A stretch of 64,000 bases of DNA. It comes from an uncultured Alphaproteobacteria bacterium (GTDB lineage: Bacteria; Pseudomonadota; Alphaproteobacteria; Acetobacterales; Acetobacteraceae). Positions 3,638 to 55,545 of the stretch are shown here, in pieces. The stretch lies in NCBI GenBank assembly GCA_963696195.1, contig OY968826.1:2829101-2893100 (forward strand). Reading direction: 5' to 3'. Position 1 is the first letter of the stretch; each line of letters starts with the position of its first letter. The notes beneath the pieces are model-generated. The model saw only the letters and a program-made list of their open reading frames with translations. It was not told the DNA's origin and searched no databases. The position numbers and the translations under genes are program-made.

Positions 3638-4887
3638 GCTGTTTCCTCTTCCTCAGGCTCGGCTTCCAGCCCCAGCATCACCTGCGCGGCATCGGCCTCC
3701 ACCATTTCCACGGTGCGCAACACCCGGCCCACGGCCCGCGTCCGCACCCGGGCTTTTTCAATATTGCTGGACATCGCCGAGGCATTCGCCGCCAGTTTGC
3801 CTAGCACATCGTCCATCTTGGTCATTTCCGCCCGCGTGGCGCCCAGCAGCTTGCCGATTTCACCCGCCCGCTTCTCCAAATCCAACGTAATATGCCCCAG
3901 ATGAATCGTCTGCAGCATCGCCGGCAGCAGCGTCGGCCCCAGTATAATCACCTTCTCGCGCACCCGTATTTCATCAATCAAATTAGGAATCCGCGCGACT
4001 TCCGCAAACAGCCCGTCGCTCGGCAAATACATCACGCCAAACTCCACCGTCTCCGGCGGGCAAATGTATTTTTCCCGGATTTTTTTAGCTTCCAGCCGCA
4101 CCCGCGCCGCGATGCCATCACGCGCCGCCCGTTCACCCTCCAGATCCGCCACTTCCGCCGCATTCAGCAGCCGCTCGTAATCCTCGGTCGGAAACTTGCT
4201 ATCCACCGCCAGCCACAACGTGCTGCGCGATGGCATCCGCACGGCAAAATCCACCCGCTCCCTTGAATCCGCCCGCAGCGCGAAATTCCGCTCAAACGCC
4301 CCCGGCGGCAGCACCTGTTCCAGCATCGCGCCCAGCTGCGCCTCACCCCAGCCGCCGCGCGTCTTCACGTTGGAGAATATCCGCTTCAAATCCCCAATTT
4401 GCGCCGCCGCCGACTGCACTTCCCCCATCGCCTGCTGCACGCTGGCAAACTGCTCCAGCACGCGGGCAAAGCTATTGGTCATCTGCAGTTCCACCGCCTC
4501 GTGCAGCTTCTCGTTCACCGAGGTCTGGATCGCCGTCAGCCGCACCTCCAGCAGCGCCAGCGTCTTCTGTGAATCCTCCGCCGCCGTCCGCCGCAACGCA
4601 TCCACCGCGGTAGCCATATTCTGTGTCGCCCCGCCGATCTGCGCGAACGCCTTCGAAAGCGCATCCGTCGTCCCGGTCTGGATCGCCGTGGTCAGCCGCC
4701 CCTCCACCGCCGCCAGGCTGGAGCGCAAAAACTCCGCCTCCGCCCGGTTGCCGGCCAGCACCTTCTCCAGCCCCAGTTGCAGCCGCGCCGGGGCTTCCCG
4801 CGCCGCGCGCCAGGCCAGCCAGCCAAATACCATGGCCGCCACGCCAATAAGCCCAACCAAAGCCAGGAGCGGAAATTCAGTGTTCAT
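3634..4887 (-). CDS. rmuC: DNA recombination protein RmuC
   Basis: N-terminal TM, coiled coil, KTRGGWGE, VDSKFPTEDYERL, FGVMYLPSDGLFAE motifs. Confidence 0.92.
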   Translation of the reverse strand: MNTEFPLLALVGLIGVAAMVFGWLAWRAAREAPARLQLGLEKVLAGNRAEAEFLRSSLAAVEGRLTTAIQTGTTDALSKAFAQIGGATQNMATAVDALRRTAAEDSQKTLALLEVRLTAIQTSVNEKLHEAVELQMTNSFARVLEQFASVQQAMGEVQSAAAQIGDLKRIFSNVKTRGGWGEAQLGAMLEQVLPPGAFERNFALRADSRERVDFAVRMPSRSTLWLAVDSKFPTEDYERLLNAAEVADLEGERAARDGIAARVRLEAKKIREKYICPPETVEFGVMYLPSDGLFAEVARIPNLIDEIRVREKVIILGPTLLPAMLQTIHLGHITLDLEKRAGEIGKLLGATRAEMTKMDDVLGKLAANASAMSSNIEKARVRTRAVGRVLRTVEMVEADAAQVMLGLEAEPEEEETA

Positions 4888-5398: not shown

Positions 5399-6295
5399 AT
5401 GAACAGCGCCGTCACCCTCATCGCCTTCCTCGTCATCATCGCGGGAGCCGCCCTCGGCTACCTCACGCAAAACCCCGTCATCGGCGGCCCCATCATCCTC
5501 ATCGGCGTCATCCTCGCCCTCACCCTGCGTACCTGCGCCGAGTGGGAACGCGCCGTCGTCCTGCGCCTCGGCCGCTTCGCCGGCGTGCGCGGCCCCGGCC
5601 TCTACTTCCTCGTCCCGGCGTTCGAGCTGGTCTACACAGTGGTTGACACCCGCCGCCAAAGCACGCGCATCTCGGCCGAGGACACCCTGACCGCCGACGC
5701 CGTCTCCGTCACCATGGACAGCATCATGTTCTGGCGCGTCTCCGACGTTAAACGCGCCGCCACCGAGCTCACCGACTACCGCAACATGATCGCCCAGATC
5801 GCCCAGACTTCATTGCGTGAAGTCATCAGCGCCACCACGCTGAATGACATCCTCGCCAACCGCGAGGCGATGGACGAGAAACTGCGCGCCTACATCACCA
5901 AAAAATCCGACGGCTGGGGCATCGGCGATATTTCCGTCGAAATCCGCGACGTCAAAATCCCCCCCGAACTCAACGACGCCATGAGCCGCAACGCCCAGGC
6001 CGAGAAAGAAAAGCAAGCCCGCGTCACCCTCGCCAGCGCCGAAGTCGCCATCGCCGAACAAATCGCCTCCGCCTCGCACATCTACCAGAACAACCCCGTC
6101 GCCCTGCAAATCCGCCAGATGGGCCTGATCTACGACATGAACAAAGACCGCGGTGTCACCATTTTGGTTCCCACCGACATGGCCAATGCCCTGGGCGCCA
6201 GCATCGCGCTCAACGTCAACAACCCCGACCGCCCCAAACCCCTCCCTGCGACGGTGTTTTCTGCGCCGTCGAGTGGGTCGGTGCCGAAGGCTTAA
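5399..6295 (+). CDS. SPFH/stomatin (slipin) family protein
   Basis: N-terminal hairpin TM, WERAVVLRLGRF, GPGLYFLVP, AQTSLREVI, ALQIR. Confidence 0.9.
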   Translation: MNSAVTLIAFLVIIAGAALGYLTQNPVIGGPIILIGVILALTLRTCAEWERAVVLRLGRFAGVRGPGLYFLVPAFELVYTVVDTRRQSTRISAEDTLTADAVSVTMDSIMFWRVSDVKRAATELTDYRNMIAQIAQTSLREVISATTLNDILANREAMDEKLRAYITKKSDGWGIGDISVEIRDVKIPPELNDAMSRNAQAEKEKQARVTLASAEVAIAEQIASASHIYQNNPVALQIRQMGLIYDMNKDRGVTILVPTDMANALGASIALNVNNPDRPKPLPATVFSAPSSGSVPKA

Positions 6296-6309: not shown

Positions 6310-6633
6310 TCACCACCGTTTGGCGGTGAAAGAGCTTTCGTCTCCGTTGTCAAAGCGGATTTCACCGACGATGGTGCGGTTTTTTTCGAGTTCGGCATCA
6401 CCGTCTCCGGCGACCTCTTCCATTTCGTCTGACCCGTGGAATTTGAACCGGATACTGGTTTTGCCATACTCGCATTGCAGGCCGATCTGGACGGCGCCGA
6501 ATGCCATTTGGCCACCGGCATCGTCGATTTGTATGTAGGCTGGGCCTAGCATATCGATGTACTCGGTATCCCAGCTCTCCATGCTGATGATCCGCCACTT
6601 GCCAAGAAGGAATTTGCCGCTGAAGGTTGTCAT
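6310..6633 (-). CDS. 107-aa conserved hypothetical passenger protein inside the IS5-family element
   Basis: ATG overlaps transposase TGA (ATGA 6633-6630); stop lies inside the terminal repeat; motif GKWRIISMESWD as recalled from ORFs that follow this transposase type. Confidence 0.65.
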   Translation of the reverse strand: MTTFSGKFLLGKWRIISMESWDTEYIDMLGPAYIQIDDAGGQMAFGAVQIGLQCEYGKTSIRFKFHGSDEMEEVAGDGDAELEKNRTIVGEIRFDNGDESSFTAKRW

Positions 6634-7290
6634 GCCGCGGCGGCGACCAACTTGGGCAGCCGGACCAAGTTGCATGCGGCGACTGTGAGGGTCACCATCC
6701 AGCCAACCCGTTTGAGGCCCCGATGGCGAGTTTTGCGCAAGCCAGCCGCGGCTTTGATCCAGCCGAAGGGCTCCTCGATGCGCTTGCGCTGCCGCTGGCT
6801 GATGGCATAGCCCGGATGACGGGTGGTCCGCGCATCGATAGCGGAGCGCCGGCCGGTGGTATTTTGCGCGACATGCGGAGTTACGCCGCGGGCGCGTAGC
6901 CGGGCCACATGCTCGGCGGTATCATAGGCTTTGTCGGCGCCCAGACTACATCGCCGGCCTCGCGGTTTGGCCGCGATCATATCCTCCGCTGCCTCGCGTT
7001 CCGCCCTGCCGGTTGCATGCGTGGTGCGGGCATCGACGATCAGGCCATGGCGGTTCTCAATGAGCAGATGCCCCATATAGCAAAGTCGTGCCGGCTGGCC
7101 TTTGGATTTGCGATATAGCCGGGCGTCCGGGCCGGTGGTCGAGGCATGGGTATCGTTGCTACGCGTCTCGCCATGAAAATTGCGCTCCGCGTTGCGCCCG
7201 GGTCCCGTCGGCGGCTCATCCGCGCCGTTCTTGCGCCGAAAACTCTTCATCGAGGCCCCGGCATCGATCAGCGTACCGTCAACCACCAAG
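6630..7290 (-). pseudogene. IS5-family DDE transposase, C-terminal two-thirds (N-terminus missing)
   Basis: VDGTLIDAGASMKSF, RSNDTHASTT-PDARLYRK, LGADKAYD, SQRQRKRIEEPFGWIK. Confidence 0.85.
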
Positions 7291-7753
7291 TGCACGGGCC
7301 TTTTGCGGCCCCGCATCATTTTCTTCAGCAGAGTTATGAAAAGTTCGGCCGTGAGGCCACCCTGATAAGTGCAATACCAGAAGGCGCCACGATCATTGAC
7401 CGCGGATGCAGCACTGACTGATTGGCGTTGACCTAGCCGCTCAACGACCTCGCGTCCACAGACCGAAATCCAAACCGTATTGGCGTGGATCTGCCGTTAA
7501 CCCAACGAAAAACCTGCTGCTCCTGCTTCGGCGTCAAGCTGCGCGGGCGCCCAGGCAACGGCTTTGCTTGCAGCGCCCTTAACCCAACGCCCGGCTGAGA
7601 GGCCGCCTTGATCCATCTGTAGATTGCAGTGCGACAGAAGCCGTACGAAGCGATAACCACAGATGGAGACTCACCATCTCGTACCCGCTCAACCGCCATT
7701 AAACGGATGACCTCCAACGTATGATGATCAAGACTTCGTCCGTCGCGCTTCAT
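7280..7753 (-). pseudogene. IS630-family transposase, frameshifted and internally deleted
   Basis: HTH part MKRDGRSLDHHTLEVIRLMAVERVR; frameshift at NGR/DPRQYGLDFGLWTR; jump to ERLGQRQSVSAASAVN..ELFITLLKKMMRGRKRPVHLVVDG. Confidence 0.82.
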
Positions 7754-7855: not shown

Positions 7856-8869
7856 TCACCCGCGCGTGAGATCGACTGTGGCGGCGAAGCCGGATTCGGT
7901 GCCGATGGCCAGGTGGGAGCCGGATGGGTTCCAGGTTAGGGCGGTGATGGCGCCGCGGCCTGGGCCGCAGACGGGGAGGACTTGTTCTTTATTGATGTCG
8001 AGGATGAGGACGAGGCCGGTGTCGAAACCGGCGGCGATGACGTCGTGTTCCGGGTGGCAGGCGACGCGTTTGACGATGCCGTCTCCGGGTCCGAGTTCCA
8101 GCGGGGCTTTGCCCATGGGGCCGCCGCCGAAGAAGGGCCATAGCACGGTGGATTCCGCTCCGCCGGTGGCGAGCCAGCGGCCGGAGTGGGTAAAGCCGAA
8201 GGATTCAGTTTTTGCGGGGTATCCGGCCATGCGCATATGTTTGCCTTCCGGCAGGGTCCAGCCGTGCAGGGCGTTTTCCTGCATGGAGGTAACGAGTGCG
8301 TCCCCCTGCGGGTGGATGGCGATGCCGGTATGGCTACCTTTCCATTCCAGGAAGCGGGGCGTGGCCGAGGCGGTGAACCACAGCGAGGCGCCGTTATAAT
8401 GCGATGCGGCGATGCGTTTGCCTTTGGTATCAAAAGCGATGCCGGTGACGGTGGACGGGTGGGGCAGGGCGCGGATGGTCTCGCCTTTGCCGTTGAACAA
8501 ATGCAGGTTTTTGCCCACGGCGGCGGCGAGCAGCGGGGTTTTCCCGGCGTAGCTGGCCACGTGCTCCACCCATTTGGAGCCGAAGCGGGCGATTTCGGTG
8601 ACGTTGCCGTCCACGCCGATGCTTAAGAATTTGCCGTCATCGCCGCCGGTGATGAAGCCGGGGGCTACCGGGTGCCGCGCCAGGGAGAGCACGGCGCCGT
8701 TATGCGCGGCGATGCTGGTCCAGCCCAAAACATTTTGCAGGCGCAGGGTGCCATCCCCGAGCGCAAAGGCGGCGTGGGTGCCAGTGGCGTCGAAACAGGC
8801 GGCGATGGCATGGGCGCCGAGTTCAGCGGTGTTGCCGCGGGCTTTGATAAGCTGGTCGAGATCTGACAT
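7856..8869 (-). CDS. WD40/beta-propeller repeat protein
   Basis: Repeated blades (FITGGDDG, WLATGGAE, VIAAGFDTG, LTWNPSGSHLAIG). Confidence 0.85.
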   Translation of the reverse strand: MSDLDQLIKARGNTAELGAHAIAACFDATGTHAAFALGDGTLRLQNVLGWTSIAAHNGAVLSLARHPVAPGFITGGDDGKFLSIGVDGNVTEIARFGSKWVEHVASYAGKTPLLAAAVGKNLHLFNGKGETIRALPHPSTVTGIAFDTKGKRIAASHYNGASLWFTASATPRFLEWKGSHTGIAIHPQGDALVTSMQENALHGWTLPEGKHMRMAGYPAKTESFGFTHSGRWLATGGAESTVLWPFFGGGPMGKAPLELGPGDGIVKRVACHPEHDVIAAGFDTGLVLILDINKEQVLPVCGPGRGAITALTWNPSGSHLAIGTESGFAATVDLTRG

Positions 8870-9003
8870 GCCTGACTAACTGCCGAACTCGGGCGCCGGG
8901 GGCAAGGCCGTGGCCTGAAGCGTGGTAAATTTGCCGCATGATTTAGGGAAAAGCCCATCGCCGGGTGATATACGCGGGTTGTGTTGTGCGGTGCGGTATG
9001 TTC

Positions 9004-9017
9004 TTGAGCTAGATCAA
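9004..9017. promoter_or_regulatory. FNR/FixK-like box
   Basis: TTGAG-CTAG-ATCAA, one mismatch to TTGAT-N4-ATCAA, 55 bp upstream of the ATG at 9073. Confidence 0.5.
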
Positions 9018-9072
9018 GGTAGCGGATTTTTCTGGCTGCCAGAAATGCGCTTGTTATCAGCAGGAGTGCGCA

Positions 9073-10437
9073 ATGAAGCGGAATAAATTTAACTGGGCAG
9101 GCGCCGCTGGCGCAGCGGCCGGATTGGTGGCGATGACGGCGATGCCTCATACGGCCCAGGCGATTCCTGCCTTCGCGGCTCAAACGGGTATGCCTTGTTC
9201 GGCTTGTCACATTGGTTTCCCTCAGCTTACCCCCTTTGGCCGCGCGTTTAAGCTTGATGGCTACGTCCAGGGCGGCACTTTCCCCGATGTGAAGAATTTC
9301 GCCGCCATGGTGGAAGGTGGCTTCACCCAGTTGCACGATAAGGTGCCGGGCGGCATGGCGCCTGACTTTCCCAGCAACAATGCTTGGTCGATCCAGCAGA
9401 CCAGTCTGTTCTATGGCGGTGCGCTTGATGGCAACATCGGCCTGGGCGGCTTTGTCCAAGGCACGTATGATGGTGTCGCGCACCAGTTCCACTGGGATAA
9501 CCTCGATATCCGTCTGGCGCAGATGACCACTGTCGCCAACAAGCGGCTGGTTTATGGTTTTACCTTCAACAATGCGCCGGGCCTGACGGATTTGTGGAAC
9601 ACACTGCCTGCCTGGGGTTATCCTTTTGTGCCGCCGGCGCTGGCGGTTGGGCCAACGGCCGGCATCCAGATCAGCGCGCTGGCGCAGGCCGTAGCGGGCG
9701 TGGGCGGGTATACCTCGCTTAACGTAACGCCGAGTGATTTGCTGTATACCGAAGTTGACCTCTACAAATCCGTGCCAAACCACACCGCCTATGCGCTTGG
9801 CGCTGGACCAGAAGTGCCGATCTCCGGGCCGATCCCCTATTGGCGCGTGGCGGTGCAGCACAGCACGTGGAAGCAATCCATTGAGCTTGGCACCTCCGGG
9901 ATGGTGGATCACCCCTATCCGGCCGGCTTCACCCACGGGCCGACGGATACCCTAACGGATCTCGGCGTGGACGCGCAGTACCAATACATTACGGTGAAGC
10001 AGGCCTTCTCCGTGCAGGCGTCTTATTTCCATGAGGCGCAGCATTGGGGTGCGAGCTATGCGCAGGGCATGACCGCGAATTTGAACGACTATCTGGATAT
10101 GGAGACGTTGACGGGCTCTTATTTGTGGCACCAGATGTTCGGCGTGACGGAATCCTTCAATGCCATCTCCGGCAATGGAGATTCGGGATTGTATGCGGCA
10201 AGCCCGGTTACCGGCAACGCCAACGGCAAGCCGAACACGGACAGCTACACCACCGAGTTGGATTACTATCCGTTCAATACCGACGGCCCGAAAATCTTCC
10301 CTTGGGCCAACGCGAAGTTCTTCGTGGAAAACACAATCTATCCCACATTCAATGGGTTAGCGCATAATTACGACGGCAACGGCCGCTCGGCGCAGGGGAA
10401 CGACGTGTGGTTTACGGGCATCTGGCTGGTCTTCTGA
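9073..10437 (+). CDS. Cyc2-like outer-membrane monoheme cytochrome c-porin fusion
   Basis: Signal peptide ending AQA, then IPAFAAQTGMP-CSACH-IGFPQLTPFGRAFKLDGY (Cyc2 N-terminal signature; CxxCH at 9196-9210), ~390-aa aromatic beta-strand-rich region, terminal Phe (GIWLVF). Confidence 0.85.
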   Translation: MKRNKFNWAGAAGAAAGLVAMTAMPHTAQAIPAFAAQTGMPCSACHIGFPQLTPFGRAFKLDGYVQGGTFPDVKNFAAMVEGGFTQLHDKVPGGMAPDFPSNNAWSIQQTSLFYGGALDGNIGLGGFVQGTYDGVAHQFHWDNLDIRLAQMTTVANKRLVYGFTFNNAPGLTDLWNTLPAWGYPFVPPALAVGPTAGIQISALAQAVAGVGGYTSLNVTPSDLLYTEVDLYKSVPNHTAYALGAGPEVPISGPIPYWRVAVQHSTWKQSIELGTSGMVDHPYPAGFTHGPTDTLTDLGVDAQYQYITVKQAFSVQASYFHEAQHWGASYAQGMTANLNDYLDMETLTGSYLWHQMFGVTESFNAISGNGDSGLYAASPVTGNANGKPNTDSYTTELDYYPFNTDGPKIFPWANAKFFVENTIYPTFNGLAHNYDGNGRSAQGNDVWFTGIWLVF

Positions 10438-10463
10438 ACGCCGGATATGCGTAAGATTACGGC

Positions 10464-10496
10464 AAAGGCGGCTGGGACATCCCAGCCGCCTTTTTG
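10464..10496 (+). terminator. Rho-independent terminator of the cyc2-like gene
   Basis: GGCGGCTGGG-ACAT-CCCAGCCGCC-TTTTT. Confidence 0.88.
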
Positions 10497-10708
10497 TAAT
10501 CAAATTATAATTGTCTTGAACTTGCAAGGCGGCCATGCAAAGCTTGACAATGGTTTTTGCAACGGCTCCAGTTGGACTGAGCTTCAAGGAAGAATTGCTT
10601 CTTCTTTGCGCACGCATAGGTTTCAGCCCGCCCCGCGCTTAAGGTTTTGGCTTGCCCGCGCCAATGGCGTGCGGGTGCGTTCATTAATCTATGGGGAAGA
10701 ATCAAATT

Positions 10709-12088
10709 ATGTTGGATAAAGCTGGTGCCGCCGTTAACTGGCAGAGCATCGATAATGCACATCATTTACACCCGTTCACGGACCATAAGGCGCTGCATGC
10801 CGGTCACGTGCGGGTTATCACCAGGGCAGACGGGGTGTTTCTGCATGACTCAGAGGGTAATCGCATTCTGGACGGCATGGCTGGGCTTTGGTGCGTGAAC
10901 GCAGGTTATAGCCGGCCCGAGCTGGTGGAAGCCGCGTCCACCCAGATGAACAAGCTGCCGTACTACAACACCTTCTTTAAAACCACGAACCCGCCGGCCG
11001 CCGCTTTGGCGGAGCGCCTGGCGAACATCGCGCCCGAGGGCGTCAACCACGTGTTTTTCGCCTGTTCCGGCTCGGAAGCCGTGGACACCGCCTTGCGCAC
11101 CGCGCGCGTGTACTGGCAAACCCTGGGCAAGCCGGAAAAGAAGATCATCATCGGCCGCGAATACGGCTACCACGGCTCCACCACGCTCGGCGCTTCCGCC
11201 GGCGGCATGGTGGACATGCACCGCCAGGCAGGCGACATGCCGAACTTCGTGCAGGTGCTACCGCCCTATTGGTACGGCTACGGCGGCCAGATGAGCCCGG
11301 CCGAATTTGGGCTTTATGCAGCCAAGCAGCTGGAAGACAAGATCAAGGAACTCGGGGCCGGCAACATCGCCGCCTTTATCGGCGAGCCGCTGCAAGGATC
11401 CGGCGGCGTTATCATTCCACCCGAAACCTACTGGCCCGAGATCAACCGCATCTGCAAGGAAAACAACATCCTGCTGATCGCCGATGAAGTGATCTGCGGT
11501 TTTGGCCGCACCGGCAAAATGTTCGGTTCTGATTATTTTGGTATTAAACCGGATATGATGACGGTCGCCAAGGGCCTCACGTCAGGCTACATTCCGCTCT
11601 CCGCGGTGCTGATCCACGACCGCGTGGCGGAGGTGCTGATTAACCAGACCGGCGAGTATTTTCACGGCTTCACCTATTCTGGGCATCCAGTTGCTTGCGC
11701 CGTGGCGCTAAAGAATCTCGATATCATCGAGAGCGAGGGACTGGTTGAGCGGGCCAATGTGGTGGGCCAAATGCTGCGTGAAAAACTGCAAGCGATGTTC
11801 GCTGACCATCCGCTCGTCGGCGAAGTGCGCGGCATCGGCATGATCGGCGGCATTGAGCTGGTTGCCGACAAGCGCACGCGCCGCTTCTTTGAGCCACGCG
11901 GCCGCGTCGGCCAGATCTGCCGCGACTTCTGTGTTGGCAACGGGCTGATCATGCGTGCCGTGCGCGACACCATGGTGTTCTCGCCACCGTTGATTATTTC
12001 GCACGATGAAATCGACACCATGGTCGCGCTGGCGAAGAAATCCATAGACCAGACCTATGAGAAAGTGAAGCACGAGGTGGCATCATGA
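10709..12088 (+). CDS. spuC: Class III omega-aminotransferase (putrescine-pyruvate transaminase, SpuC-like)
   Basis: HHLHPFTD, LDGMAGLWCVN, GYHGST, ADEVICGFGRTG, VAKGLTSGY; RBS favours ATG 10709 over 10691. Confidence 0.85.
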   Translation: MLDKAGAAVNWQSIDNAHHLHPFTDHKALHAGHVRVITRADGVFLHDSEGNRILDGMAGLWCVNAGYSRPELVEAASTQMNKLPYYNTFFKTTNPPAAALAERLANIAPEGVNHVFFACSGSEAVDTALRTARVYWQTLGKPEKKIIIGREYGYHGSTTLGASAGGMVDMHRQAGDMPNFVQVLPPYWYGYGGQMSPAEFGLYAAKQLEDKIKELGAGNIAAFIGEPLQGSGGVIIPPETYWPEINRICKENNILLIADEVICGFGRTGKMFGSDYFGIKPDMMTVAKGLTSGYIPLSAVLIHDRVAEVLINQTGEYFHGFTYSGHPVACAVALKNLDIIESEGLVERANVVGQMLREKLQAMFADHPLVGEVRGIGMIGGIELVADKRTRRFFEPRGRVGQICRDFCVGNGLIMRAVRDTMVFSPPLIISHDEIDTMVALAKKSIDQTYEKVKHEVAS

Positions 12089-13455
12089 ATATGCTGCCGC
12101 TCGCCGCCGACCGCGATGCCAGACTGGCGCTGATGGCGCAGGCTGAATATATCGAGGCCTTCATCATCGATGTGAATGGCGTGCCGCGCGGCAAATGGAT
12201 GCAGCCGGACAAGGCAAAATCCTTGCTCGGCGCCGGCGTCGCCATGCCGCGCTCGGCTTTTCTGCTGGACATCTGGGGCCGCGACGTGGTCGAGGGCGGA
12301 ATCGCGCTCGACACCGGCGACCCCGACGGGTTGTGTACCGCCGTGCCGCATTCCATCACCCGCATGAGCTGGGCTGAAGGCACGGCGTGCCAAGCCATGC
12401 TGACCATGCTTGAGGCTGACGGCAGCCATTTCTTCCTCGACCCGCGCGGTGTGCTGGCGCGCGTGCTGGAGCGCTACACCGCCGCCGGCCTTAGCCCGGC
12501 ACTTGGCGTGGAGTTGGAATTTTACCTGGTCGATGAAGGCCAGACCGGCGGCTTGAAAATTGCCCCGCGCGGCGCGGATTACTCCGGCTGGCGCGGCTGG
12601 CATATCGATGCGGTGGGTCTGGGCGAAATCCATGACTACCAGGTGATTCTGCGCGAAATGATGTCGATCGCAAAATCGCAGGGAATCACGCTGGAAACAC
12701 TGATCAGCGAGAACGGGCCGGGGCAGTTCGAGGTGACGCTGAAATACTCGACCGACGCATTGCGCGTCGCCGATTCCGCGACGCTGTTCAAGCGCACCAT
12801 TAAGCAAGTGGCGCGCAAGCATGGGCTCACCGCCACCTTCATGGCCAAGCCTTATGGGCAATGGGCGGGCAGCGGCATGCATGTGCATATGTCCGTGCTG
12901 GACACCAAGGGCAACAATATTTTTGTCGGCACGCCCGAACGCGCCGCACCCGTGCTGTACAACGCGCTGGGTGGAATCATCCAGGCCATGCCTGATACGA
13001 TGCTCACCCTGGCACCGCACGCCAACTCCTACCGCCGTTTTGCCCCTGGTGTGCATGCGCCCACCTTTGGTGACTGGGGGCATGACAACCGTTTGGCCGC
13101 GGTGCGCGTCATCACCGCCGACCCGCCGGCCTCGCGCATCGAACACCGCGTTGCCGGGGCGGACTGCAACCCATATCTTGCCTTCGCCTCGCTGCTCGGC
13201 TCGGCACTGCACGGCATTGAAACCAAAGCCGGCCCCGGCCCGGAAACATTTGGCGACAGACGCACTGGCCAAGCCCCGCCGCTGCCCATCGCCTGGTCCA
13301 CCGCGCTCGATAAATTTGCTGACTCCGCCTACATTAAAAGCATTTTTGGCGCTGATTTCCAGCGGCTTTTCACAGCCTGTAAACGTCAGGAAATCAACGA
13401 AATGCGGCGGCGAATCTCGGATGTGGAGTATGACGCTTATCTGGAGACAGCATGA
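12085..13455 (+). CDS. Glutamine synthetase-like gamma-glutamyl-polyamine ligase (PuuA/SpuB-like)
   Basis: DVNGVPRGKW, ELEFYL, ENGPGQFE, FMAKPY, GSGMHVH, NSYRRF, RIEHRVAGADCNPY. Confidence 0.85.
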   Translation: MNMLPLAADRDARLALMAQAEYIEAFIIDVNGVPRGKWMQPDKAKSLLGAGVAMPRSAFLLDIWGRDVVEGGIALDTGDPDGLCTAVPHSITRMSWAEGTACQAMLTMLEADGSHFFLDPRGVLARVLERYTAAGLSPALGVELEFYLVDEGQTGGLKIAPRGADYSGWRGWHIDAVGLGEIHDYQVILREMMSIAKSQGITLETLISENGPGQFEVTLKYSTDALRVADSATLFKRTIKQVARKHGLTATFMAKPYGQWAGSGMHVHMSVLDTKGNNIFVGTPERAAPVLYNALGGIIQAMPDTMLTLAPHANSYRRFAPGVHAPTFGDWGHDNRLAAVRVITADPPASRIEHRVAGADCNPYLAFASLLGSALHGIETKAGPGPETFGDRRTGQAPPLPIAWSTALDKFADSAYIKSIFGADFQRLFTACKRQEINEMRRRISDVEYDAYLETA

Positions 13456-14339
13456 GGAACGTTACCATCGCCGCAACGCAAATGGCATGCGGACCAGATG
13501 CCGCGGCAAACATCGCCAGGGTGGAAAAACTGGTCCGCGCGGCGGCGGCGCAGGGTGCGCAGATCATTCTGATACAAGAACTTTTTGAGAGCCTGTATTT
13601 CTGCCAGGACCAGGTTCACGCCTTCTTCGGCCTGGCCAAACCGCTGGCGGAAAACGCCGCGGTCAAGCACTTCGCTCCCATTGCGAAGGAACTCGGTGTT
13701 GTGCTGCCGATCTCGGTGTTCGAGCGCGCCGGGCAGAGCTTTTTCAACACCATCGTGATTCTTGATGCTGATGGCACCAACCTCGGCTACTACCGAAAAT
13801 CACACATCCCCGACGGCCCCGGTTATTCCGAGAAGTTTTACTTCTCCCCCGGCGATACCGGCTTCAAAGTGTGGGACACTAAATACGCGCGCATCGGTGT
13901 TGGCATCTGCTGGGACCAATGGTTTCCCGAAACCGCGCGCGCCATGGCCCTGATGGGCGCGGAACTGCTGTTCTTCCCCACCGCCATCGGCTCCGAACCG
14001 CAGGACCCCACGCTGGACTCCAGCGGTCATTGGCAGCGCACCATGCAAGGCCACGCCGCCGCCAACCTCATGCCGCTCGTTGCCTCCAACCGTATCGGCA
14101 CGGAACCAGGCGTGCACGGCACCTCCATCACCTTCTACGGCTCCTCCTTCATCGCCGATAATACGGGCGCCAAAATCGCCGAGGCCAACCGGACGGATGA
14201 GGCCATCCTCACCGCCACCTTCGACCTCGATGCACTGGCCCATATCCGCGCCTCTTGGGGCGTATTCCGAGACCGCCGCCCGGAACTCTACACCCCGCTG
14301 CTCACCCTGGACGGCAAACACGCTAGCAGGGCGCGATAA
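13452..14339 (+). CDS. aguB: N-carbamoylputrescine amidase
   Basis: Nitrilase E-K-C triad: QELF, YRKSHIPDGPGYSEKFYF, GICWDQWFPE. Confidence 0.93.
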   Translation: MRNVTIAATQMACGPDAAANIARVEKLVRAAAAQGAQIILIQELFESLYFCQDQVHAFFGLAKPLAENAAVKHFAPIAKELGVVLPISVFERAGQSFFNTIVILDADGTNLGYYRKSHIPDGPGYSEKFYFSPGDTGFKVWDTKYARIGVGICWDQWFPETARAMALMGAELLFFPTAIGSEPQDPTLDSSGHWQRTMQGHAAANLMPLVASNRIGTEPGVHGTSITFYGSSFIADNTGAKIAEANRTDEAILTATFDLDALAHIRASWGVFRDRRPELYTPLLTLDGKHASRAR

Positions 14340-15421
14340 TGGGGACGGTGCCCCGCCAACTTGGTTTTGCCATGCCCGCGGAGTGGGCGCCGCACGCGGG
14401 GTGCTGGATGATTTGGCCCGAGCGGCCGGACAACTGGCGGCTGGGGGCTAAGCCGGCGCAAGCTGCGTTCACGGCCGTGGCCTCGGCGATTGCGCGGTTC
14501 GAGCCGGTGACGATGCTGGTGAGTGCAAGGCAATTCACCAATGCGCGGGCGATGCTGCCGGAGGCCGTGCGCGTCGTGGAGGTCAGCACGAATGACGCCT
14601 GGGCGCGCGATGTGGGGCCGAGTTTTCTGCTGAACGCGGCAGGGGAACTGGCCGGTGTGGACTGGCCGTTCAATGCCTGGGGCGGTTTGCAGAACGGCTT
14701 GTATTTTCCGTGGGATTTGGACGACCAGGTGGCCGCGAAAATGCTGCAGATCGAACGCGCACGAAAATTCCGCGCGCCGAAAATTGTCGAGGGCGGGGCG
14801 ATTCATGTCGATGGCGAGGGCACCGTGCTTGTTACCGAGGCATGTCTGCTCGCTGAGGACCGCAACCCCGGCGCCACCCGCCAGGAGATGGAGCGGGTTT
14901 TGAAAGATTATCTCGGCGTCAGCCATGTCATCTGGCTGGGTGCCGGGGTGCCGGGTGATGAGACCGGCGGGCATATCGACAACCTCGCCTGCTTCGTGCG
15001 CCCCGGCGTGGTGCTGCTTACCTGGTGCGACGACCCTGCCGACCCGCATTACGAAGTCTCCCGAGCGGCGCAGGAGCGTTTGCAAGGTGCGCATGATGCT
15101 AAGGGGCGTGCGATCAGGGTCGAGCACATTCCCATGCCTACGCCGATGTTCATCTCCGCGGACGAGGCTGCCGGCATTGACCATGCGGAAAACGGCATGA
15201 ACCGCGCGGCGGGCGAGCGGCTCGCGGCGTCCTACGTGAATTTTTATATTGCGAACGGCGCGATAATTGCACCATGCTTTGGGGTAGCAACGGATGCCCC
15301 CGCGCGGGCCGTATTGGCGCGGCTGTTGCCGGAGCGGGAGATTGTGATGGTGCCGGCGCGCGAGATTCTACTGGGAGGCGGCAATATTCATTGCATCACC
15401 CAGCAACAACCAAAGGCTTAA
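14339..15421 (+). CDS. aguA: Agmatine deiminase
   Basis: MPAEWAPH, NDAWARD, EGGAIHVDGEG, ETGGHIDN, GGGNIHCITQQQP. Confidence 0.95.
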   Translation: MGTVPRQLGFAMPAEWAPHAGCWMIWPERPDNWRLGAKPAQAAFTAVASAIARFEPVTMLVSARQFTNARAMLPEAVRVVEVSTNDAWARDVGPSFLLNAAGELAGVDWPFNAWGGLQNGLYFPWDLDDQVAAKMLQIERARKFRAPKIVEGGAIHVDGEGTVLVTEACLLAEDRNPGATRQEMERVLKDYLGVSHVIWLGAGVPGDETGGHIDNLACFVRPGVVLLTWCDDPADPHYEVSRAAQERLQGAHDAKGRAIRVEHIPMPTPMFISADEAAGIDHAENGMNRAAGERLAASYVNFYIANGAIIAPCFGVATDAPARAVLARLLPEREIVMVPAREILLGGGNIHCITQQQPKA

Positions 15422-15443
15422 GGATAAACATAAGGGGGCTAGA

Positions 15444-16823
15444 ATGGCTACGGAGTTAAAGGCGAACGCGTTATCGTTCTTCGAATCGATCATTATGGGT
15501 ATAGCGGGTTCCGCGCCGGGATTCTCCATCGCGGTGGCGATTGCGGGACTGTTGGCAACAGCGGGGCATGTGTCGCCCAATGCGTTGCTGCTCTTTGCCG
15601 TGCCGATGCTGGGCATTGCGGTGGCCTATAAAGGGCTAAGCCAGAAAATGACGAACGCCGGGGCCGCTTACGAGTGGACCAAATCCGTATTCGGCGGATT
15701 TTTTGGCTATTTCTCGGGCTGGGCGCTGCTGATCGCCGCCATGGTGTTCATGGTCACCGGCAGCGTGCCGCTGGGCACCGCGACCATTGATCTGTTCGAC
15801 CCGTCCCTGGCCGCCAATGTTTGGCTGACCACCTTCATCGGCGCGGTCTGGTTCCTGGCCATCGGCGCCGTGCTGATCGCCGGTATTGAACTCACCAGTA
15901 AAATCCAGGTGGTGATGAGTTCGATCGAGCTGCTGATCCTGTTCGGTATTTCCATCGCGGCATTTCTGCATACCGGCGTGGGCGGCGCGGTGTCACCTTT
16001 TTCCTGGTCCTGGTTCAGCTTCAATTATCCCGCCGGCACGTTTGCCACTTCCGCGCTCGCGGTGGTGTTTCTGTACTGGGGTTGGGATGTCACCGCCAAC
16101 CTCGGCGAGGAAACCAAGGAGCACCCGCCCAATGCAGCCGGCCATGGCGGTTTCCTGAGCATCTTCGTCACCATCGCCTCGTTCGTGGCGTTCACGGCCG
16201 CGGCGCTCATGATGTTCACGCTGGCGGATGCGACCAGCTTCTCCGATAATCTGATCTACCACGTCGCGATTGCGGCGGGCCTGGGCAAGACGGGCGGTTA
16301 CGCTGCCTCGCTGGCGCTGATCCTTTCCAGCGTCGCGACGCTGGAAACCACCATGCTGCAATTCTCCCGCACCCTGTTCGCCATGGGACGGGACCGTGCG
16401 CTGCCGGTGTTTTTTGCCCTGGTGCACGAAAAGACGGTGACGCCGGTACGCACCATGTACCTGCTGCTGGCCGTCGGGCTGGTGATGATTTTTGTTTCCA
16501 GCTTCTTGCCGTCGATCGCGACAATCCTGGGTGATTCAGTCGCCGCGATTGCGGTGCAGGTTTGCTATTATTACGGTCTGGCTGGGCTGGTCTGCGCCTG
16601 GGTGTACCGCGATAGTTTCAAGCAATCCACGTGGACTTTCGTGCAGTACGTGATTTACCCGCTGCTGAGCGCGCTCTCCCTGTTCGCGCTCGGCATCTAC
16701 GCGTTCATGGGCTACAATATGACCGTGAAAATCGTCGGCCTTGGCGGGCTGCTGATCGGCATCATCTTCTACCGTCCCTCCGGCTACGGCAAGCTGGTCG
16801 CGGATATCGTCGCCGAAGAGTAA
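15444..16823 (+). CDS. APC family amino acid/polyamine permease
   Basis: About 12 hydrophobic segments, GSAPGFS, AGAAYEW, YWGWD, EETK. Confidence 0.88.
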   Translation: MATELKANALSFFESIIMGIAGSAPGFSIAVAIAGLLATAGHVSPNALLLFAVPMLGIAVAYKGLSQKMTNAGAAYEWTKSVFGGFFGYFSGWALLIAAMVFMVTGSVPLGTATIDLFDPSLAANVWLTTFIGAVWFLAIGAVLIAGIELTSKIQVVMSSIELLILFGISIAAFLHTGVGGAVSPFSWSWFSFNYPAGTFATSALAVVFLYWGWDVTANLGEETKEHPPNAAGHGGFLSIFVTIASFVAFTAAALMMFTLADATSFSDNLIYHVAIAAGLGKTGGYAASLALILSSVATLETTMLQFSRTLFAMGRDRALPVFFALVHEKTVTPVRTMYLLLAVGLVMIFVSSFLPSIATILGDSVAAIAVQVCYYYGLAGLVCAWVYRDSFKQSTWTFVQYVIYPLLSALSLFALGIYAFMGYNMTVKIVGLGGLLIGIIFYRPSGYGKLVADIVAEE

Positions 16824-54931: not shown

Positions 54932-55545
54932 TGGATAAATTCACCCTCCTCACCGCCACGGTGGCGCCATTGAATTTGGCGAATGTGGATACGGATAAAA
55001 TTATTCCGGCGCGGTTCTTGAAAACCATCAAGCGCAGCGGGCTGGGCGTGAGCTTGTTTTCGGACCTGCGGTATAATGCGGATGGTTCAGAGAAGCCGGA
55101 GTTTGTGCTGAATCAGCCGAAATATCGTAAGGCGGAAATTCTGGTGGCGGGCGAGAATTTTGGTTGTGGCTCCTCGCGCGAGCATGCGCCCTGGGCGCTG
55201 CGGGATTTTGGCATCCGTTGCGTGATCGCGCCGAGCTTTGCCGATATTTTCCACGGTAATTGCTTAAAGAATGGCATTTTGCCGATTGTGCTGCCTGCGG
55301 CGGTTTGCGAGCAGTTGATGGAAGATGCGGCGAAGGGCACCAATGCGCGGCTAACCATTGATCTGGAAAAGCAGGTTGTGGTGCGGCCAGATGGCGAGGA
55401 AATTCGTTTTGAAGTCGATGCTTTTAGAAAGCATTGCCTGCTCAACGGGCTGGACGATATTGGCCTGACGCTGGAACATGCCGCCGCGATTGATGCCTAT
55501 GAAGCCAAAACCCCAAGCTGGAAGCCGGCGATTAACGGAGTCTGA
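54931..55545 (+). CDS. leuD: 3-isopropylmalate dehydratase small subunit
   Basis: [24 protein letters not shown]. Confidence 0.97.

Follow-up and report, generated by a model that had tools for sequence, protein, structure and literature searches.

Genes and features at the locus

The window (the whole 64-kb stretch of DNA that we analyzed) carries at 9073..10437, on the plus strand, a gene for a 454-aa protein with a signal peptide, a single CSACH heme motif and a predicted 16-strand barrel. The motif occupies residues 42–46, past the signal-peptide end (...AQA/IPAF), and is the sole CxxCH near the N-terminus; C42, C45 and H46 are invariant across 16 homologs. The AlphaFold (AF2) model contains 16 beta-strands (at moderate confidence, pLDDT 62.7, pTM 0.68), and the product as modeled has the layout of a Cyc2-type fused cytochrome-porin. 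No Pfam or NCBIfam model matches this protein, and a search for cyc2-like paralogs in the same genome found none, i.e., the gene is single copy. Its nearest homologs are Acidocella proteins (85% to a protein of a bog MAG and 83% to one of A. aquatica), and we therefore assigned the 2.9-Mb genome, a single contig, to Acidocella.

A Shine-Dalgarno sequence (AGGAG, 9062..9066, plus strand) lies 6 nt upstream of the ATG and is invariant in the alignment of close relatives. At the other end of the gene, just 3' of the stop codon, we identified by sequence and folding an intrinsic terminator (10456..10500, plus strand), a GC-rich hairpin followed by TTTTT. The hairpin has a dG of -31.2 kcal/mol (z = -8.6), and 0 of 200 shuffled sequences fold as well; the cyc2-like gene is therefore taken to be monocistronic. 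The next gene downstream of the terminator encodes a class-III aminotransferase (Pfam) and is unrelated. On the other side, a WD40-repeat gene (7856-8869, minus strand) is transcribed divergently, and the gap of 203 nt between the two genes holds the cyc2-like gene's own promoter.

Further out, the region 10691-16823 downstream of the terminator looks like an agmatine/putrescine utilization cluster, with genes for a class-III aminotransferase, a glutamine-synthetase-like protein, a nitrilase-family amidase, an agmatine-deiminase-like protein and an amino-acid permease (the aminotransferase was named by Pfam, the other genes by our own reading of the translations). This cluster is syntenic with the cyc2-like gene in Acidocella only. 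On the far side of the WD40 gene, upstream of the cyc2-like gene, the window has an SPFH gene (5399-6295), and remnants of a DDE transposase (PF01609) lie between the SPFH and WD40 genes at 6310-7319.

An FNR-type box upstream of the cyc2-like gene

Reading the sequence directly, we find CTTGAGCTAGATCAAG at exactly 9003-9018, an FNR/FixK-type box that is assigned to no strand and is supported by its consensus match, by conservation upstream of orthologs and by over-representation in intergenic DNA (see below). This is where the original prediction had placed the box, and the single mismatch to TTGAT-N4-ATCAA that it had described is borne out as well. The core TTGAGCTAGATCAA (9004-9017) has 8 of the 8 specified bases of TTGA-N6-TCAA and 9 of the 10 bases of TTGAT-N4-ATCAA, G9008 being the sole mismatch. 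The box is centered at 9010.5, that is, 62.5 nt upstream of the ATG at 9073 (54 nt separate the end of the box from the ATG) and 141.5 nt from the ATG of the WD40 gene. Its promoter-proximal half-site, ATCAA, is the consensus, and the distal half-site, TTGAG, has a G where T or C is usual. By our own count, just 2 of the genome's 45 intergenic boxes have a G here, and this rare base may make the site at 9003-9018 a weak one, of lower affinity than the boxes of Acidiphilium. An Rfam scan of 8700-10800 returned sub-threshold chance matches only, with no riboswitch or sRNA at the box.

The 64-kb window contains two TTGA-N6-TCAA sites (0.40 expected). The second one, at 55018-55031, is inside a leuD-like coding frame (our own reading of the translation) and is most likely a chance occurrence.

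We note another element in the same gap, a near-palindrome TGGTAAATTTGCCG at 8923-8936 (TGGCAAATTTGCCG in relatives), which is kept in the six closest relatives. It is 81 nt away from the center of the FNR box, and the divergent WD40 gene starts 60 nt downstream of it. We considered this TGG(C/T)AAATTTGCC block as a sigma-54 promoter and rejected it, the GG-to-GC spacing being 7 nt and not 10. A genome search for the block gave 13 loose copies only and no clear regulon.

Conservation of the box upstream of orthologs

Conservation upstream of orthologs was the check named along with the prediction, and we ran it on 80 loci encoding relatives of the cyc2-like protein, taken from a species-level genome collection. 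The ortholog set contains 47 Acetobacteraceae loci (at least 58% identity and sufficient upstream DNA), and a distant set contains 31 loci (less than 58% identity). A perfect TTGA-N6-TCAA is found in 32 of the 47 Acetobacteraceae loci, 175-226 nt upstream of the heme codon, and 13 more loci have a box with one mismatch in the same place, so that 45/47 are within one mismatch in total. The background in the rest of the same loci is 5 boxes in 293 kb (0.006 per 360 nt). Two of the 47 loci (L025 and L056) have no box at the conserved position. Among the distant loci (Burkholderia, Stellaceae and others), a box was found in only 5 of 31. No block of the intergenic region beside the gene is better conserved among the closest relatives than the box and the Shine-Dalgarno sequence.

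The neighboring genes are conserved over a narrower range: the WD40 neighbor is kept in 20 loci and the aminotransferase in 19, all of them in the Acidocella clade. Acidiphilium-type loci have different neighbors and no divergent WD40 gene, yet they have perfect TTGAT-N4-ATCAA boxes. As the box is retained despite the differing neighbors, it belongs to the cytochrome-porin gene.

The two half-sites have different histories. Within the syntenic Acidocella clade the distal half-site decays (TTGCG in A. facilis and A. aminolytica, TCGAG in L022) and the proximal ATCAA is invariant (L013, L014, L015, L019, L038, L017 and L022); the Acidiphilium-type loci L035-L051 retain the full TTGAT-N4-ATCAA. 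Such decay of the distal half-site could lie behind strain differences in iron reduction, constitutive in some strains and O2-inducible in others.

Promoter signals at a fixed distance from the box

We anchored 46 ortholog promoters on the box without gaps and counted again in a non-redundant subset of 31 promoters (flanks less than 55% identical). Two flank positions stand out. A G is found at +8.5 from the box center in 43/46 promoters (29/31 non-redundant), and an A at +30.5 in 40/46 (26/31 non-redundant), preceded by C or T at +29.5 in 40/46. The remaining flank columns carry less than 0.6 bit each and none of them reaches 80% in the non-redundant set; downstream of the box region, conservation is confined to +30.5. 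If the box is centered at -41.5, the G at +8.5 falls at -33, as in TTGACA, and the A at +30.5 falls at -11, where the -10 hexamer has its key A. On the WD40 side, the corresponding mirror positions lack conservation, with T at -30.5 in only 15/46 promoters and no conserved G at -8.5. Across the genome, the Y-A signature is seen at 18 of 40 gene-facing boxes, as compared to 6/50 and 5/42 in the controls.

Placed on the window, this geometry predicts a -35 region AAGGTA at 9017..9022 that is overlapped by the box (G9019 being the conserved G at +8.5, i.e., -33), a weak -10 hexamer CAGAAA at 9040..9045 (C9040 and A9041 being the conserved Y-A at +29.5/+30.5, i.e., -12/-11) and a transcription start near 9052 (9050..9054; box center + 41.5, from class II geometry), all on the plus strand. 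Apart from the A at -11, the predicted -10 is poor. The predicted leader is ~21 nt long and holds the AGGAG. A scan of the plus strand for sigma-70 consensus promoters found none (the same scan missed the terminator, which was later confirmed by folding), and this fits the expectation for an activator-dependent promoter. The conserved flank columns give specific, if indirect, support to a class II activator-dependent promoter.

Boxes across the genome and the candidate regulon

The whole genome (2.9 Mb) has 66 TTGA-N6-TCAA sites. Using a second-order Markov model, we expected 8.8 +/- 3.3 boxes in intergenic DNA (18% of the genome according to our own codon-usage gene calls) and observed 45; coding DNA has 16 boxes as compared to 18.9 expected under the same model, i.e., no excess. 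Given 45 observed and 8.8 expected, any intergenic box in this genome is therefore ~80% likely to be part of the excess before other evidence is considered.

Boxes lie 25-250 nt upstream of a range of genes, among them hemN (TIGR00538, 440 bits, above the cut-off), cydA, hcp, hemB/Nramp, a cyoA-like gene, ompW, cfa, phaC, the gene for an alternative ATPase beta subunit, fhs, and genes for OmpA-type porins and a small cytochrome c. A box is also found upstream of the ATG of the fnrL-like regulator gene. As predicted from box positions, this set of genes is a typical low-O2 regulon. We note that the box of hemN (gene at genome position 955633, box at 955585-955598) is centered exactly 41.5 nt upstream of the called ATG, and therefore a leaderless hemN mRNA is predicted if its promoter is class II.

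CRP/FNR-family regulators

We identified three CRP/FNR-family paralogs in the genome, with recognition helices ETVSR, ENLSR and ETVSR, all of the E--SR type. One of them (genome 604207-604980) has FnrL as its best NCBIfam match; it scores 162.2 bits, below the equivalog cut-off of 300, and hence we call it FnrL-like and not an equivalog. Its top PDB match is the FixK2 structure 4i2o. The protein has cysteines C27-x2-C30-x7-C38 (CxxCx7C) and a central C126, so that four cysteines are present as for a putative [4Fe-4S] O2 sensor, three of them N-terminal and one central. C27, C30 and C126 align with the cluster-ligand cysteines of the Aliivibrio FNR-type chain (5cvr/5e44 group, variant 9qlt_A), and C38, the third N-terminal cysteine, is offset by 2 residues from the corresponding ligand.

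The box of the fnrL-like gene, TTGATATGGATCAA at genome 604166-604179, is centered 34.5 nt upstream of the ATG, which suggests either negative autoregulation or a mis-called start.

The other two paralogs are an FtrB-like regulator (genome 1181865; match to the FtrB model), which is divergent from hcp and has a perfect TTGATCTAGATCAA box, and a FixK-like regulator (genome 1975620-1976348; match to the FixK model). A search of the genome for FixL gave no match above the cut-off (the model is rhizobium-specific).

FnrL orthologs are found in 11 of the 12 relatives' genomes that we examined. The only one of the 12 without an FnrL match at 1e-20 is L025 (MAG RAIPG19), which is also one of the two loci without a box upstream of the cyc2-like gene; this joint absence is suggestive and may reflect either co-loss or incompleteness of the MAG.

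Proposed mechanism and alternative explanations

Taken together, we consider it likely that the monocistronic cyc2-like gene is driven by a class II promoter that depends on an FNR-type activator, with the box as its operator, and that FnrL binds there at low O2. The FNR-type regulatory reading of the original prediction is thus supported by the conservation of the box, by an FnrL-like regulator with Fe-S cysteines and by a low-O2 regulon, and the class II geometry that it had proposed gains indirect support from the two conserved flank positions, G at -33 and A at -11. We infer that FnrL is the binder, that it activates and does not repress, that O2 is the signal, and in which direction electrons flow; low oxygen probably induces the cyc2-like gene.

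In the proposed sequence of events, the FnrL-like regulator would keep its [4Fe-4S] cluster as O2 falls, and would dimerize. The dimer would bind TTGAGCTAGATCAA, centered ~41.5 bp upstream of the start near 9052 and extending into the -35 region, and would bring in RNA polymerase at a promoter with a weak -35 and -10 of its own. The resulting mRNA would be short, beginning with the ~21-nt leader that contains AGGAG and ending at the hairpin 10456-10500. The cell would then make the cytochrome-porin at the same time as the other products of the low-O2 regulon (among them those of hemN, ompW and hcp, and cytochrome bd). Under O2 limitation, the protein would most plausibly offer electrons a path through the outer membrane to Fe(III) outside the cell or to other metals.

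Could a genuine CRP/FNR-family operator be read by a different protein? The three paralogs share the E--SR motif and match the FtrB, FixK and FnrL models, and a site bound by the FtrB-like or FixK-like paralog would respond to NO or nitrosative stress, to redox state or to a cascade. The FtrB-like gene has a perfect TTGATCTAGATCAA box of its own and pairs with hcp, a gene for NO/hydroxylamine detoxification, and the FixK-like paralog is conserved in Acidocella genomes (matches of 36-41% identity). However, in Acidiphilium iwatense and Acidiphilium sp. C61 the FnrL-type protein is the only one found at E<=1e-20, and yet these genomes have perfect boxes before their cyc2-like genes; moreover, A. 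rubrum and Acidiphilium sp. PA encode FnrL, and not one of the other paralogs, beside the operon. No bona fide FixL was found for such a reading, though the FixL model is rhizobial, and a cascade from FnrL to the FtrB-like protein would still have O2 as its top signal. We regard control by another paralog as unlikely. A reading in which the site acts mainly on the divergent WD40 gene, or represses the cyc2-like gene, appears quite improbable to us: 20 Acidocella-type loci keep the WD40 gene in synteny, the window has a C-A dinucleotide at the mirror +29.5/+30.5 position too, and the regulator's own box, 34.5 nt before its ATG, has a geometry suggesting autorepression, but the box is kept in ~25 loci without a WD40 neighbor, the conserved flank columns are on the cyc2 side only (with the mirror T at -30.5 in 15/46 and no conserved G at -8.5), and no independent sigma-70-like promoter was found that the box could occlude.

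As for a chance palindrome without regulatory role, chance alone would place ~9 boxes in the intergenic DNA of this genome, and the site is one position off TTGAT-N4-ATCAA. Conservation at a fixed position in 45/47 loci (as compared to the background of 0.006 per 360 nt), together with a promoter signature at fixed spacing, makes this explanation very unlikely.

Cytochrome c partner and implications for iron metabolism

In ~25 Acidiphilium-type loci, the cytochrome-porin gene is directly followed by a gene for a small monoheme cytochrome c. For example, in Acidiphilium rubrum (L042) the cyc2-like gene is in an operon with a gene for a 131-aa monoheme cytochrome c (4311-4706), and the same is seen in L045. 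In A. rubrum (L042, 5736-6590) and in Acidiphilium sp. PA, the operon is followed, ~1.4 kb further downstream, by the gene for a second FnrL paralog (CxxCx7C). We note that in A. rubrum this second paralog comes after an SPFH/stomatin-like gene, and that an SPFH gene is also present in the window. In the window's clade, the cytochrome c gene is not linked to the cyc2-like gene; the cytochrome c homolog of this genome (53% identical) has a perfect box 220 nt upstream of its start. The cytochrome c orthologs of two relatives have no box within 1.5 kb.

Cyc2 homologs have already been reported in Acidocella, Acidiphilium and other Acetobacteraceae (PMC10715153, PMC10654088), and the homologs of Acidocella and Acetobacteraceae are linked in a similarity network (PMC10654088). 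Those of acidophilic heterotrophs were previously read as possible Fe(II) oxidases that feed a cytochrome oxidase (PMC10715153). Fe(III) reduction under micro-aerobic conditions is described for both Acidiphilium and Acidocella, with an oxygen-inducible system in some Acidiphilium (PMC8790237; PMC10715153); according to a review, the mechanism of Fe(III) reduction in acidophilic heterotrophs such as Acidiphilium and Acidocella is unresolved (PMC8790237). At. ferrooxidans expresses the isoforms Cyc2B/Cyc1B in anaerobic Fe(III)-reducing cultures (PMC8790237). Induction of a Cyc2-type protein at low O2 would fit this picture of Fe(III) reduction (PMC8790237, PMC10715153). It argues against a purely aerobic role as Fe(II) oxidase, and micro-oxic Fe(II) oxidation remains compatible with it.

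A search of the literature for an FNR box linked to Cyc2 homologs (Acidiphilium, Acidocella, At. ferrooxidans) found no paper. What is new here is the cyc2-like gene as a regulon member of a well-known type of switch. A conserved FNR-type class II promoter would tell when the protein is wanted, namely at low O2, alongside hemN and cytochrome bd. The FNR link makes both the direction of electron flow and the mechanism of Fe(III) reduction in acidophilic heterotrophs testable. It also bears on functional annotation, as pipelines (FeGenie-style calls) score any Cyc2 match as 'iron oxidation'.

We put forward more tentatively that an FnrL-controlled Cyc2-type porin-cytochrome might be the 'oxygen-inducible' Fe(III) reductase of acidophilic Acetobacteraceae, acting in Acidiphilium with the operon-encoded monoheme cytochrome c. 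The 'oxygen-inducible' Fe(III)-reduction system was reportedly inferred from physiology in 2002, and we know of no gene that has been assigned to it. If the proposal is true, a family known as Fe(II) oxidases would run as terminal reductases under micro-oxic conditions. Box strength would then explain why some strains are constitutive and others reduce iron at low O2 only, the box being full in Acidiphilium, TTGAG or TTGCG in Acidocella, and absent from the conserved position at two loci.

Comparison with known systems

At class II FNR promoters of E. coli, the site TTGAT-N4-ATCAA is centered at -41.5. The promoter proposed here is similar in having a palindromic operator over the -35, a fixed spacing to the A at -11 and a weak core promoter, and the regulator shares with E. 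coli FNR the Fe-S cysteines and the E--SR helix. Unlike in E. coli FNR, the N-terminal cysteines follow the pattern CxxCx7C and not Cx3Cx2Cx5C; in addition, the distal half-site is TTGAG, the transcription start is a predicted one, and the host is an acidophilic, mostly aerobic alphaproteobacterium.

The regulons of FnrL (Rhodobacter) and FnrN-FixK (rhizobia, Caulobacter) use TTGA-N6-TCAA and have hemN, a high-affinity oxidase and the regulator's own gene among their targets. The candidate regulon described here resembles them in its consensus, in these hallmark targets and in a regulator whose best NCBIfam match is FnrL, and differs from them in that the FnrL score is below the equivalog cut-off and that the oxidase target is cytochrome bd (cydA). 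In the literature that we searched, we found no description of an outer-membrane Cyc2-type cytochrome as a member of an FnrL/FixK regulon.

Within the Acetobacteraceae, GoxR of Gluconobacter oxydans is an Fe-S FNR-type regulator, as described in PMC9429829 with reference to Schweikert et al. 2021. Going by that citing description, GoxR and the candidate regulator here are alike in that each is an Fe-S protein of the FNR type that would control genes of respiration and redox metabolism, and G. oxydans is an aerobic member of the same bacterial family.

The gene product itself can be compared to Cyc2/Cyc2B and Cyc1/Cyc1B of At. ferrooxidans, with which it shares the outer-membrane monoheme cytochrome-porin and the pairing with a small periplasmic c-cytochrome (PMC8790237, PMC10715153). 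Unlike cyc2 of At. ferrooxidans, for which the FNR paper that we examined reports no FNR control, the gene here stands alone, with the cytochrome c encoded elsewhere and no rusticyanin or rus-operon context in the window. Acetobacteraceae homologs were retrieved with a Cyc2B query and described as 'often adjacent to a mono- or di-haem cytochrome' (PMC10715153), and the ~25 Acidiphilium-type loci with an adjacent cytochrome c agree with this description.
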